From assembly GCA_963514005.1 (NCBI GenBank), contig OY740808.1, positions 13,702,001 through 13,766,000 on the forward strand: a DNA stretch of 64,000 nt, given 5' to 3'. This DNA is from Raja brachyura (Eukaryota). The first letter of the stretch is position 1. Every line of letters starts with the position of its first letter. Positions 37,341 to 59,878 of this stretch are shown piece after piece. The translations under genes were made by a program, and so were the position numbers. The notes beneath the pieces are model-generated. The model was not told the origin of the DNA. It did not search any database and saw only the letters and a list, made by a program, of their open reading frames with translations.

Positions 37341-37734
37341 GCAAGGCAAACTAGATAATTGACTGCCTGGTAACACTGATCTCCCAGCTCTGAAGACTGT
37401 TAGCTACAAAAAAAACCTGCAAGAAATTGAGGAATGCAACCCTATTCAGCTGTGGCATAACCAAGAAATGATGAATCACTGGCCTAACTTCCTTAATATG
37501 TGTGCAGCAGGAGGCTCCTCAATACTTTACTTAGTATAGCAAGAACAGCTCATTCATCTTCTCATATCTGTTCTGCTATCCACTTATTATCCTTATTTAA
37601 ATCTTCAATTCCACTATTTCCTTTCTTCCACTCTCCCGAATATCGTTACCTAACAACACTCTATCTAAGGGTTACATAAAAAGCTGGAGAAACTCAGCGG
37701 GTGCAGCAGCATCTAAGGAGCGAAGGAAATAGGC

Positions 37735-37762
37735 GACGTTTCGGGTCGAGACCCTTCTTCAG
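37735..37762 (-). ncRNA. Minimal hammerhead-ribozyme-like motif in the Penelope pLTR
   Basis: CTGAAGA-A-GGGT-CTCG-ACCC-GAAAC-GTC on the element sense strand: CUGANGA and GAAA core boxes, helix II and a GUC triplet. Activity is not demonstrated. Confidence 0.65.
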
Positions 37763-38011
37763 ACTGGTCAGGGATCAGGAAAACGAGAGATATAGACAGT
37801 GATGTGGAGAGATATAGATGGTGATGTGGAGAGATACAGAACAATGAATGAAAGATATGCAAAAAAGTATCGATGATAAAGGAAACAGGCCATTGTAAGC
37901 TGTTTGTAGTGTGAAAATGAGAAGCTGGTGCGACTTGGGTGGGGGAGAGATAGAGAGAGAAGGAATGCCAGGGCCTGAGGGAGAGGTGGGAAGGGGAGGA
38001 GGCAGCCAGGG

Positions 38012-39235
38012 TTAACAGAATTGAGAAAATTCAATGTTTAAGCCCAGAGGATGCAGACTCCCCAAGCGGAATATGAGGTGCTGTTCCTCCAATTGCGGTG
38101 TTGCTCACTCTGGCTGTGGAGGAGGCCAAGGACTGAGAGGTCGGATACGGAATGGGAGGGGGAGTTGAAGTGCTGAGCCACCGGGAGGTCGGGATGGTTA
38201 TTGCGGACCGAGCGGAGGTGTTCGGCGAAACGATCGCCCAGCCTCCGCTTGGTCTCACCGATATAGATCAGCTGGCATCTGGAGCAACGGATGCAGTAGA
38301 TGAGGTTGGAGGAGGTGCAGGTGAACCTCTGTCGGACTTGGAAGGACTGCTTGGGTCCCGGAAAGGAGTGGATAGGGGAGGTGAAGGGACAAGTGTAGCA
38401 TCTCTTGCGGTTGCAAGGGAAAGTGCCCGGGGAAGGGGTGGAGCGGGAGGGAAGGGAAGAATTGACAAGGGAGTTGCGGAGGGAGCAGTCTTTGCGGAAG
38501 GCAGACTGGGGGGGAGATGGGAAGATGTGGCGAGTGGAGGGGTCACGTTGGAGGTGGCGAAACTGGCGGAGGACTATCTGTTGTATGTGCTGGCTGGTGG
38601 GGTGAAAGGTGAGGACCAGGGGGACTGGGCCCTTGTTGTGAGTGGGGGAATGGGGAGAGAGGGCAGTGTAGCGGGGTATGGAGGAGACCCTGGTGCGAGC
38701 CTCATCTACAGTGGGGGAGGGGAATCCCCGTTCTCTGAAGACTGAGGACTTTTGTGATGACCTGGTGTGGAACACCTCATCCTGGGAGCAGATGCGGTGT
38801 AGACGGAGGAATTGGGAATAGGGGATGGAGTCCTTACAGGAAGCAGGGTGGGAGGAAGAGTAGTCCAGGTAGCTGTGGGAGTCAGTTGGTTTGTAGTGGA
38901 TGTCGGTCAGGAGTGTATCACCTGCAATAGAGATGGTGAGGTCAAGGAATGGTAGGGAAATGTTGGAAATGGTCCAAGTGTATTTTAGTGCCGGATGGAA
39001 GTTGGTGGTGAAATGGATGAAGTCAGTCAGTTGTGTGTGGGTGCAGGAGGGGACACCAAAGCAGTCGTCAATGTAACGGAGATAAAGGTCGGGGGTGGGG
39101 CCCTGGTACGCCGAGAACAAAGATTGTTCGACGTGCCCGACAAAGAGGCAGGCGTAGCTGGGGCCCATGTGTGTGCCCATAGCTATGCTTTGTGTTTGGA
39201 GGAAATGGGAGGAGTCAAAAGAGAAGCCATTGAGG
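38012..39235 (-). pseudogene. Penelope RT/GIY-YIG reading frame, truncated at the 5' end with a 1-nt frameshift near 38091
   Basis: After EQHR the expected C-terminus LEEQHLIFRLGSLHPLGLNIEFSQFC* continues in another frame to TAA at 38014-38012. Confidence 0.8.
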
Positions 39236-39289
39236 AACACTCTATCTAAGCTCTTTAATTTCTAGACTGGCCCATTCAGTCTTTTGGCA

Positions 39290-39500
39290 TCAAAATTCCA
39301 AATACCCGTGATCTATCTCTACCTCTTTGATGACCCTCAGACTATCCTTGATTGGACTTTGCTGGCTTTACCTTGCACTAAACATTATTCTCTTATGTAT
39401 CTACACTCTGTAAATGTAATTACGTATTGTCTTTCTGCTGATTGGTTGCACACAACAAAAGCTTTTCACTGTATCAAAAGTGACAATAAACAAAACTAAA
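39290..39500 (+). repeat. Rex1-type 3' UTR fragment
   Basis: Similar to 14450-14630 (TTGCACTAAACATTATTC...AGCTTTTCACTGTA). Confidence 0.6.
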
Positions 39501-40109
39501 TTGATCTGTCTGCGATGCCTGGTCTGGCTCTCACTTAATAACCCCACCCCATATTGTGGAACACCCATCGCCAGAGCAGATGGTAGCTGATCTAACAAAT
39601 CCCATTTCAAACAGTTTAATTAACTTTTGGGAATTCCGGTGCTACTAAATTGACATCAAAGTTGAGTTCTGGTCAAGAAACCCAAAAGTATCACATTGTT
39701 GGTTCAAACTGATATGTGGAAAGCAGGAATTGCCATTGATATGGTTGAAATGAACAGTTTATTGGGTTTGAATTCAGCAAAAAGGGGGTTTTCAAGATAT
39801 CCAAAATTATTTGGCATTACTCTTATCTGATTGGGATTAAACGTGGACAAGTAAACTGCTCATATTTTAAATCCAAATTCCTCATTTCAACCATTTGGGA
39901 TTCAGTGCTAGCTGTCCTTCCTGTTCACCTGGACCAGCAGGTAATAAGTAGTTTTTCTTCCTCACACAAGAACCCAGGTTGTCGACACAGGGTTGCTAGG
40001 ATGATTCAATCAACATGAAGAGGAAAACAGCTAGGGATGGTGATTAACTAAATTCCAATTAGCCTCCTTTTGCTCTGATATTTAATTTCATTCACATGTT
40101 TAAACTATA

Positions 40110-57306: not shown

Positions 57307-57608
57307 CTATAGACAAAGGAAAACAGAGTATAATTGCTTAAAATTCACAACAGAAAGACATACCTTTGCATGCTCCGATGCAAAAAGACAAAGCAGCAAA
57401 TTCAAACTAGTGTAGCCAATGACTTTGTCAGAAGACCAATACAAGCCGAGCGGAGGAATTAGACTCATTATCTTTTAGGGTAAACAGTGCTTCCCAACAG
57501 TAAATGGGTTTTCCCCTCAAACATGGTGTATAAACATTGGCATTCCTTTCCCGTTAGTAGCACAAAATAACAAGTTGGATTTTTACAAAAAGTACAACAG
57601 ATGTTATA

Positions 57609-57836
57609 TGTAGGAAGGGACGGCAGATGCTGGTTTAAACCGAAGATAGACACAAAAAGCTGGAGTAACTCAGCGGGACAGGCAGCATCTTTGGAGGGAA
57701 GGAATGGGAAGAAGTAGTCTGAGAGTCTCGACCCGAAACGTAATCCAGTTTCGGGTTCGAGACTTCTTCAATCCATTCCTTCTCTGCAGAGATGCTGCCT
57801 GTCCCGCTGAGTTACTCCAGCTTTTTGTGTCTGTCT
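57609..57836. mobile_element. Inverted/rearranged Penelope pLTR dimer (second subfamily) with 12-bp TSD
   Basis: Arms GACACAAAAAGCTGGAGTAACTCAGCGGGACAGGCAGCATCT and its reverse complement. TSD ACAGATGTTATA at 57597-57608 and 57837-57848. Confidence 0.82.
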
Positions 57837-58934
57837 ACAGATGTTATAAATTTGAAAGAATAATGGAAAGTGCTGGAAATACATAAAAAGCAGCATTTGA
57901 GGAGAGAGACACTACGCTGACACATCAGGCAGTGACCTTTGAGAGATCATGGCTGTGAAAATTTAACTGATTCTTTCTCACATTGGCCTGACTTTAAATA
58001 ATGTAACATTTTCTGCTTTTATAAACAGCTTGCTTTTGACCAGGTCAAAACTGTGCCTTACAGTGGCCTCAACCAAGCAGAAATGCAATTGTTGCAGTGG
58101 GCATCACACACTTGTGCATCGAAGGGCAGAAGAGAAAAGCATTGCTTAGTCCATAATATTTCTTGTCAAACTGTTGCTCTTGTCTACACCATTCACTTGG
58201 AAAGTATAGCTGATATGTCATTGAAAATACCAACAGTGTAAAACTTTAGGCTGGGTAAAGTTACAACTACCATGTAGCACAAGTTGGCATGCGACAGTTT
58301 TGGAAAGTATTTCAGCACTGACAAATTGAGACAAGAAATCACCAAAACTATCTGCATATGCATCAAATCAGCATGGAAGAAAAGGGGAAAGTGGATCATA
58401 TGAAGAGTCATGTTTTAACAGATCCATGGATAAGAAAGGTTTCGAGGGATATGGGGCAAACACAGGCAATGGGACTAGCTTAGATGGGGCATCTTGGTTG
58501 GCAAGGGCCTATTCTCATGCTGTACGACTCGGTGTTACCCCATTATTCGCCGGAGAATGACAAATGTATTCTTGTAGGACAAATGGATAGGAGGGTGTTA
58601 AACAGGTACAGGGCAAAAGGCATGATCCGCAGTGGTGTCATTCAACTGGCACACAAAACCTAAAAGGAGCCCGTCATTATATTCAACATACTGATTTGTA
58701 AAAGCACCAATGAGAGAACAGTGCAGGAAACATGTGCTGACATCCAACTGCATCATTTCTATGGAGCTAATTTTTGAGGAACTAATGTAGCTTTAAGAGA
58801 CTTTTTACAATATCAAAGGGTGTTATACAATTGCAACTCTTAGAATGAGAGCATCAGTCTATCTTGAGGTCCAGCAGTGCCCTGAAGAGTCCAAGGAGTA
58901 GAGATGCAATACCATGTCATGAGCACTATGAATA

Positions 58935-59064
58935 ATCAGAAGAAGGGTCTCGACCCGAAACGTCCCCCATTCCTTCTGTCCAGACATGCTGCCTGTTCCG
59001 CTGAGTTACTCCAGCTTTTTGTGTCTATTTTCGGTTTAAACCAGCATCTGCATTTCCTTCTTAC
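58935..59064 (+). mobile_element. Penelope pLTR copy including tail, with 12-bp TSD
   Basis: AGAAGAAGGGTCTCGACCCGAAACGTC...GAGTTACTCCAGC...CCAGCATCTGC. TSD GCACTATGAATA at 58923-58934 and 59065-59076. Confidence 0.82.
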
Positions 59065-59649
59065 GCACTATGAATAGCTATTGTGTACAATTAATCAAAT
59101 TAACTCACAGTACCGAAGCTTAAATGCTGCATAAACTGCTCCCCAAGGGCTCATCAACCAGCATCTATTTCTCATTACAGACCAATGAATTTTAAAAACC
59201 AAAACCATTGTCATATGCCTTTCATTACAATAGTGAGCACATTTCAAATGTACAGTTCACACTCCCAAGACTGTCTGAACAGTTAAGAATTTGATGCAAT
59301 CATCTTGTGATGTGAGGATTTGAGAAGAATTAGTGCATTGATCTGAAATTGATGAAAGTGGAAAATTATGACAGTTTGGGATAAAACGCCTGGAAAATAA
59401 TGAAACATATAGGAAAAGAAAAAAAACCCCAAAGAACTTACATTCACAGGGACACTATAATTTTCTGAACATTATTAAGTTCAACGAAGTTGAACCTTGT
59501 TGATAATTTATAACCTGAGGAAATCTCAAAGTGCTCTGTAACGAATAAAACCCCTCTTACTTTTATGGTGTAGTCACTGTTGTAATACAGAAAACAAAAA
59601 AAAATTTACACATCAGGATCACATTGATAACAAAGTAATAAAACAACCA

Positions 59650-59878
59650 GGGTTACACAAAAAGCTGGAGAAACTCAGCGGGTGCAGCAGCATCTAAGGA
59701 GTGAAGGAGATAGGCGACGTTTCGGGTCGAGACCCTTCTTCAGACGTTCAGGGTCTGAAGAAGGGTCTCGACCCGAAACGTCGCCTATCTCCTTCACTCC
59801 TTAGATGCTGCTGCACCCGCTGAGTTTCTCCAGCTTTTTGTGTAACCCTCGATTCTCCAGCATCTGCAATTCCTTCTT
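59650..59878. mobile_element. Inverted dimer of Penelope pLTR (perfect 97-bp palindrome plus tail) with 14-bp TSD
   Basis: Arms 59649-59745 and 59753-59849 are exact reverse complements with a 7-nt spacer. TSD TAATAAAACAACCA at 59636-59649 and 59879-59892. Confidence 0.9.
59755..59782 (+). ncRNA. Hammerhead-like motif, plus-strand arm (mirror copy at 59716-59743 on minus)
   Basis: CTGAAGAAGGGTCTCGACCCGAAACGTC with a possible short helix I (GGGU/GCCU). Confidence 0.6.

Follow-up and report, generated by a model that had tools for sequence, protein, structure and literature searches.

Short hammerhead-bearing repeats of Raja brachyura as likely pLTR-end insertions of an abundant Neptune-clade Penelope-like element

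We analysed a stretch of 64,000 nt (hereafter the window) from the 2.70-Gb genome of Raja brachyura (contig OY740808.1, positions 13,702,001 to 13,766,000), in which an initial annotation had read a dense set of short repeats as a retrozyme-like family lying beside its candidate driver element. Our results indicate that these repeats are likely insertions of the pseudo-long terminal repeat (pLTR) end of an abundant Penelope-like element (PLE) of the Neptune clade, and that the copies of 90-135 bp (hereafter stubs) are likely complete cDNAs of the 5' end of its capped, uncut RNA and not a separate non-autonomous family. Both the class of element and the ribozyme motif are already known, and the retrozyme and driver readings fail. 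The value of the family is mechanistic and concerns the role of the PLE hammerhead and the way in which pLTRs, inverted ends and tails come about. Its young copies, which number tens of thousands, stop at sharp positions that can be counted, and from these a transcription start, two priming sites and rare cleavage are predicted.

Ends of the young copies

Signed coordinates count from the predicted hammerhead cut, with C17 as 0, the next base as +1 and C3 as -27. With an anchor sequence that lies downstream of the predicted cut and marks 61,732 copies genome-wide, we gathered 131 young arms. They come from the loci of the first 100 matches of one contig, a 970-kb sample of evenly spaced genome stretches, two stretches adjacent to the window and the window itself, with inverted pairs counting twice. 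Their 3' ends cluster at +62..+68 and +98..+102, that is, at two fixed points (+66 and +101) about 35 nt apart. A tail of about this length (30-40 bp) is typical of PLEs in the available text of PMC8557442 and PMC11167929, and in PAc, the Poseidon element of Anolis carolinensis (Frangieh et al. 2024, PMC11167929), it marks two internal start sites of the reverse transcriptase (RT). At the other end, 68 of the arms begin between -34 and -25, with a peak of 17 at -30, and 2 begin at +1; in the 37 arms that reach beyond -60, gapped alignment places the 5' ends at scattered points between -78 and -1855. The 94 short arms comprise 35 with an inverted partner, 31 solo arms with a called target-site duplication (TSD), 24 without a called TSD and 4 in tandem. 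The TSDs of the solo short arms measure 8-19 bp, with one doubtful case of 27 bp.

The native sequence around -30 is CCAGTCT (CCA-GTCT, 3 nt before C3), which fits the initiator consensus YYANWYY. PLE pLTRs are described as holding TATA-less promoters with initiator-like sites (PMC2377424, PMC3846280). When the base preceding A(-30) was counted genome-wide, native C was found 14,857 times, and the non-native bases were G (2039), A (1075) and T (627), compared with about 29/35/36% G/A/T expected from the flanks. An extra G is a known trace of cap copying, from work on L1. Of the 13 non-inverted arms that start at -30, 9 have a G before it (p = 0.003, post hoc), and in 30 G-class loci viewed by eye the G lay outside the TSD in about 6.

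Starts at the cut itself number 185 genome-wide, compared with 243 at a control position (+4), or ~510 compared with 405 once corrected for the letters allowed, while ~4,800 copies start at -30. Given how few starts fall at the cut, the template was mostly uncut RNA, as for PAc, for which uncleaved RNA is the main substrate and no reads end at the cut site (PMC11167929). By contrast, the copies of a second family, headed by a ribozyme like that of hepatitis delta virus (HDV) and described below, begin at their predicted cut. In the fold predicted for the Penelope RNA from -30 to +102, helix II has a pairing probability of at most 0.004 and the core pairs with the tail; a stem between +21..28 and +76..83, within which the first priming site lies, is conserved in 83-91% of ~170 copies.

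Proposed origin of the stubs

From these ends we propose that transcription would start at the initiator-like CCA-GTCT, 3 nt before C3, and that the element's RT would prime on a nicked target at an internal site, +66 or +101, in the manner seen in vitro for PAc (PMC11167929), and run off the RNA 5' end after 95-130 nt, often adding one base opposite the cap. Head-to-head pairs would come from priming on both target strands, and small partial tandems from an RT that jumps to a 3' end on reaching the RNA 5' end; long copies would come from priming at the downstream pLTR, with truncation at random. The hammerhead would be kept by selection in master elements and probably cuts rarely, as a dimer or with the protein, and the inserted stubs would be dead passengers. 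PAc shares the two internal start sites that define the tail, the extension on both target strands and a hammerhead upstream of the start sites; its open reading frame (ORF) starts inside the hammerhead, whereas here the ATG lies at +136, past the tail, and stubs running from start site to priming site are not described for PAc in the available text of PMC11167929.

A bolder reading, which we offer tentatively and regard as rather doubtful, is that the junctions record the Penelope cycle: mostly capped, uncut templates starting 3 nt before the core, a small minority cut by the ribozyme in vivo and marked by repeated units, or both 5' ends, at +1, and an RT jump from the 5' end of an RNA to its own oligo-A 3' end that would build partial-tandem pLTRs in one step and seed 300-bp multimers, which would be retrozymes at birth.

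Several points weigh against the proposed origin of the stubs. Both the start site and the cap are deduced from DNA. The pile of 5' ends spans 10 nt, with fold-back palindromes contributing at -31 and -27, and the upstream sequence also resembles a 3' splice site. The G was target-derived in about 4 of the 30 G-class loci viewed, and 5 of the 30 share flanks, having been re-amplified inside another repeat, which inflates the G count. The young sample comes mostly from 0.17-3.4 Mb of one contig and counts inverted pairs double. Finally, a few loci have repeated ends at +1, and the missing +1 peak does not exclude cleavage followed by ligation. The five loci with shared flanks are L234, L241, L247, L253 and L254, where a head-to-head Penelope stub has been multiplied together with the surrounding repeat.

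The strongest competitor, which we still consider unlikely, holds that the sharp 5' boundary is an RT stop or template-switch hot spot on read-through RNA, set by RNA structure or by the CTTCAG/CTGAAG palindrome, and that the stubs are simply 5'-truncated copies of the usual sort. Heavy 5' truncation is a known trait of PLEs, as are fold-back junctions (PMC8557442, PMC3846280), and many inverted junctions here use the palindrome at -31..-25. Moreover, the helix in which the core is predicted to pair with the tail ends near -27. Against this reading, polymerases stall on entering a stem and not after leaving it. In addition, the peak persists in the 13 non-inverted arms at -30, with their excess of preceding G, and a hot spot does not predict the G excess seen genome-wide.

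Anatomy and conservation of the hammerhead motif

The assignment of the repeat to a Penelope pLTR with a minimal type I hammerhead, made in the initial annotation, holds. The motif has an extra A9.1, a G10.1-C11.1 pair, an ACGU palindrome and a short helix I, all four described for metazoan PLEs (Cervera and De la Pena 2014, PMC4209133), and the core boxes and the NUH are present too; the PLE minimal hammerheads are reviewed in PMC6765202. With the hammerheads of PMC4209133, as described in its available text, the present family shares the CUGANGA/GAAA core, the extra base between A9 and G10.1, the G10.1-C11.1 pair, the palindromic 15.2-16.2 segment, the short helix I and the pLTR location, as well as an arrangement mostly as single dispersed motifs with opposite-strand pairs. 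The copy number is higher here: the exact core motif CTGAAGAAGGGT-N4-ACCCGAAACGTC occurs 62,423 times genome-wide (backwards control 0), compared with ~4,000 in coelacanth and ~9,000 in Xenopus. The present motif, known from sequence, is also homogeneous, and its helix I has only 2 bp.

A descriptor of the full minimal hammerhead gave 38 matches in the 970 kb (control 1), 27 of them with a 2-bp helix I, and three in the window (59755+, 59743-, 37762-), two of which lie on the sense strand of the host gene RAB35:

37735..37762, minus strand: descriptor-intact minimal hammerhead core (C3 to C17), helix I of 2 bp, RAB35 sense strand
59716..59743, minus strand: descriptor-intact hammerhead core, helix I of 2 bp, RAB35 sense strand
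59755..59782, plus strand: descriptor-intact hammerhead core, predicted cut 3' of 59782

C59782 is C17, in agreement with the cut predicted earlier. In this plus-strand core the 4-bp helix I is supplied by the junction linker and not by native upstream sequence. Of the copies previously taken as intact, the one with a TCCA loop near 24313 has a broken core, and those at 16700 and 46778 have lost the ACGU palindrome (ATGT); overall, the 11 core bases plus H17 are kept in 6 of 29 window copies, and these three alone carry the full descriptor. The Rfam hammerhead models, proposed as a check, gave no match at E<=5 in the window or in loci L041, L303 and L304.

Among eight subfamily majorities, 22 of 28 positions are invariant in the hammerhead, compared with 34 of 61 downstream, and the core bases are common to the majorities, CpG decay aside. 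The loop had been described as varying over a conserved stem. The stem is indeed invariant between subfamilies in helix II; the loop varies little, with differences at one or two positions from one subfamily to another and decay for the rest, and two-sided covariation in the helices, likewise proposed as a check, was not found between subfamilies. The changes are one-sided, both in pair 2.1-1.1 (U-A 113 and U-G 54 of 190) and in helix II (U-A 246 and U-G 17 of 309). In a single case, locus L092, two pairs of helix II have both partners changed, with UU/AA in place of GG/CC. The pattern of conservation fits an upkeep of the motif in master elements and is not proof of structure; promoter or protein-binding constraints overlap the hammerhead positions and could contribute. 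We did not take the copy-level mismatch (core 6.8% compared with flank 10%, non-CpG; helix II 13.8%) as evidence of selection, given profile ascertainment and base-content bias. As regards activity, Lunse et al. reportedly saw dimer cleavage of PLE hammerheads, according to a review. The dimer activity of metazoan PLE hammerheads is described as low (PMC4209133).

Tandems, multimers and the retrozyme reading

We regard as improbable a retrozyme-like non-autonomous family, in which short units would be transcribed, self-cleaved as dimers, circularised and retrotransposed by the Penelope protein. Metazoan non-LTR retrozymes are likewise non-coding, hammerhead-bearing and pLTR-related (PMC7229834; bioRxiv 2026.07.22.740005), and retrozymes derive from pLTRs (bioRxiv 2026.07.22.740005). 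According to the available text of PMC7229834, they form tandem arrays with canonical motifs and circular RNA, whereas the family here is dispersed, its motif is minimal and it has no amplified unit. The family is characterised neither by head-to-tail arrays in which every unit of 150-450 bp holds a complete hammerhead, nor by a canonical type I motif with a 6-bp helix I and loop-loop contact. Of 305 insertions 208 are single pieces, and the 442 matches include only 11 pairs of same-strand neighbours, lying within 1 kb, that cover both cores. No pile of copy ends is seen at the cut, and the stubs are 98-100% identical to the autonomous pLTR, without private sequence.

The best case for retrozymes comes from a few multimers. 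There are 657 exact pLTR-to-ORF junctions genome-wide; of the first 30 matches, 3 continue to the locus edge, >1.6 kb into the ORF, and most are mini partial tandems that join +157..+256 to -30/-31 or further upstream, several of them passing through short A runs and a G. A few multimers repeat one junction, namely L303 (a TSD-flanked 311-bp unit, three cores) and L304 (a ~330-bp unit, two intact cores), and two junctions recur at a second locus. These rare 311-330-bp multimers, none of which lies in the window, fall under the two-complete-units rule for retrozymes in the available text of bioRxiv 2026.07.22.740005. However, the L303 junction has 4 occurrences at 2 loci genome-wide, and the search for an amplified tandem unit gave only those. 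Loci L303, L304, L284, L290, L294 and L276 are all TSD-flanked small pLTR-ORF multimers with a repeated junction, and possibly nascent retrozymes.

A cut template would also fit some loci drawn from the first 100 of the 185 starts at +1. Arrays of +1..+62 units occur at L315 and L323, with different TSDs and possibly one origin; L329 holds an array of +1..+60 units in which the last round continues through the core, and at L331 (G000:C7:34913200-34916300) a TSD-flanked insertion encloses 2.5 kb of ORF and has +1 at each of its two 5' ends. L330 likewise belongs to the insertions in which repeated units, or both 5' ends, begin exactly at the cut. No array of this type was seen among the first 100 control starts. 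The arrays are few and a weak hint of occasional cleavage; an RT pause may also explain them, as the predicted hairpin closes at +1.

Slightly less probable again is that the sharp 5' boundary of the stubs is a 3' splice site (a pyrimidine tract and CAG before TCTGAAG), with stubs made from spliced RNA. The upstream sequence is pyrimidine-rich and ends in CAG, and there is a precedent in the Drosophila Penelope, whose intron end maps to helix I (PMC4209133, PMC2377424). Nevertheless, the peak sits at -30 and not at -28, the copies examined have no common upstream exon, the branch-like CTGAC is only 4 nt from the AG, and G leads among the non-native bases whereas exon ends favour C or A before AG.

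We found no description of start-site stubs, or of this family in cartilaginous fish, in a literature search whose coverage lay outside most subscription journals and Repbase; the supplements of PMC4209133 and of bioRxiv 2026.07.22.740005 (one chondrichthyan genome sampled) may already list the motif.

The parent element

The repeat had been recognised as the 3' end of an element with RT and GIY-YIG domains at 37670-39235, and a TSD-bounded element is confirmed there:

37670..39235, minus strand: 5'-truncated Neptune-clade Penelope-like element with the C-terminal half of the RT, a CX4CxxC linker, GIY-YIG with CCHH cysteines, 3' untranslated region and hammerhead

The element ends at +66 between 15-bp TSDs (37655-37669 and 39236-39250), retains 1.57 of 3.97 kb and corresponds to aa 786-1192 of the full protein, interrupted by a frameshift near 38095-38105 (near aa 1166-1169). 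It is 93.7% identical to the full-length copy at locus L041. Because it is 5'-truncated and frameshifted, this copy is not the driver that it had been proposed to be; it is a dead copy within a large family that was active recently. For a 140-aa piece of the RT there are 27,896 genome-wide candidates, of which the best 150 are 94-96% identical, and an intact ORF of 1204 codons was present outside the window at 2 of 10 long-frame loci fetched. At locus L041 a full unit of 3,971 bp is joined to a partial tandem and an inverted copy, and in full-length copies the stub segment itself sits directly upstream of the ORF.

The full-length ORF matches RVT_1 (E 2e-4) and, C-terminally, GIY-YIG (E 2e-3), both below the Pfam cut-offs, and 1293 homologues have the identical set of RT and GIY-YIG domains. 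The hallmarks of endonuclease-bearing (EN+) Penelope elements are present: a pLTR, a partial tandem, an inverted arrangement, an optional 30-40-bp tail and a TSD. Ahead of the endonuclease, the linker CNRKRCYTC matches the CX2-5CxxC that defines the Neptune clade (PMC8557442), and by this motif, rather than by an RT tree, the element is assigned to Neptune; an earlier label of Poseidon was dropped on the same ground. With the Neptune EN+ elements described in the available text of PMC8557442 and PMC3846280 it shares the single ORF with RT and GIY-YIG, the CX2-5CxxC linker, the CCHH cysteines, the partial tandems, the inverted 5' copy, the optional 30-40-bp tail and the TSDs. It differs from them in its long ORF and also in its young arms, about half of which measure 90-135 bp and have a common 5' boundary. 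The full-length protein has 1192 aa from the first Met, exceeding most of 120 listed homologues (660-1130 aa, one of 1690). In the ORF of locus L042, aa ~130-600 form a proline-rich N-terminal region with no Pfam match.

Abundance and copies in the window

Each of the positions at which the initial annotation listed some 20 copies holds a match. A single copy as query in nhmmer gave 22 matches in the window, and an iterated profile 29, with none in the reversed sequence. In the 970 kb, the profile gave 442 matches (reversed control 0), corresponding to 305 insertions, or one per 3.2 kb, which bears out the very high copy number, about one per 3 kb, claimed before. The window is thus typical of the genome in repeat density, and by extrapolation ~850,000 insertions would be found genome-wide, a major component of the genome. 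This all-age sample comprises 208 single, 53 head-to-head, 10 tail-to-tail and 34 more complex insertions. Among four contig sets compared, the family is plentiful also in the DNA of other organisms, and no empty-site allele was found.

The copies of the window, besides the element above, are the following:

59650..59879, both strands: head-to-head insertion, minus arm 59650-59745 (-29..+66), 7-nt linker, plus arm 59753-59879 (-29..tail)
51173..51261, minus strand: young stub spanning -22..+66, without the CUGA box, 12-bp TSD
57609..57840, both strands: older head-to-head fold-back insertion, core rearranged
58936..59065, plus strand: older stub (-28..+99), TSD present, C3 region of the core mutated
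52700..52828, plus strand: older copy with tail, G12 lost
48863..49089, both strands: older head-to-head pair, from the profile search
37004..37220, minus strand: older copy carrying part of its 3' untranslated region, from nhmmer
187-374, 11585-11813, 15155-15413, 16326-16429, 16686-16765, 20267-20390, 24216-24331, 31106-31206: decayed copies (first part), from the profile search
31684-31729, 41835-41919, 44793-44849, 46765-46871, 48428-48546, 61162-61276, 62861-62933: decayed copies (second part), from the profile search

The head-to-head insertion at 59650-59879 lies between 13-bp TSDs (59637-59649 and 59880-59892), and its arms are 100% complementary across 97 nt. A match of Rfam MIR2118 at 57609..57840 was rejected as a spurious fold-back artefact.

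Host gene

Exons were searched in 296 of 320 open frames of at least 60 aa, a scan that short exons may escape. The host gene is the following:

27687..60477, minus strand: host gene RAB35, exons found near 60200, 35600 and 27700

The repeat-dense span reported initially (37670..59878) falls between the RAB35 exons near 35600 and 60200. The TOP3B exons were found at 3207-7763 on the minus strand. Accordingly, the two sense-strand cores at 37735-37762 and 59716-59743, earlier divided between RAB35 and TOP3B, are indeed intronic and both lie in RAB35. That such copies cut the RAB35 or TOP3B pre-mRNA and regulate the host gene is very improbable: two descriptor-intact cores do stand on the RAB35 sense strand, but the matches inside the gene show no strand bias (9 minus, 8 plus), helix I has 2 bp, the hammerhead fold is predicted not to be favoured in its sequence context, the insertion at 59650-59879 would fold as a 97-bp hairpin burying both cores, and the CpG positions of the core decay like neutral DNA. 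Nothing points to an effect on host genes, and cleavage of host pre-mRNA is unsupported.

Other repeats in the window

A 194-bp repeat resembling a short interspersed nuclear element (SINE), present at 47316-47509 on the plus strand and at loci L262-L272, starts with G1 of an HDV-like ribozyme, terminates in (GAA)n and is flanked by TSDs. The Rfam model CPEB3_ribozyme scores 30.5 bits at the window copy, and 41.4 and 37.9 bits in two other copies (gathering threshold 35). The family has 2591 genome-wide candidates, and 40 that were scored are 91-100% identical. The closeness of its ribozyme to the mammalian CPEB3 ribozyme may bear on the origin of the latter; a literature search found no paper on a SINE-like family headed by a CPEB3-like ribozyme.

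Decayed pieces of a Tc1/mariner-type transposase (DDE_3, HTH_SB) lie at 8936-9951 on the minus strand. Other 3'-end fragments of long interspersed nuclear elements (LINEs) are found in both orientations at 767-1892, 3414-3722, 8549-8713 and 28373-29429, with RVT_1 at 28236-28511, and an ALKBH8_N-like piece at 12405-12860 is likely LINE-derived.

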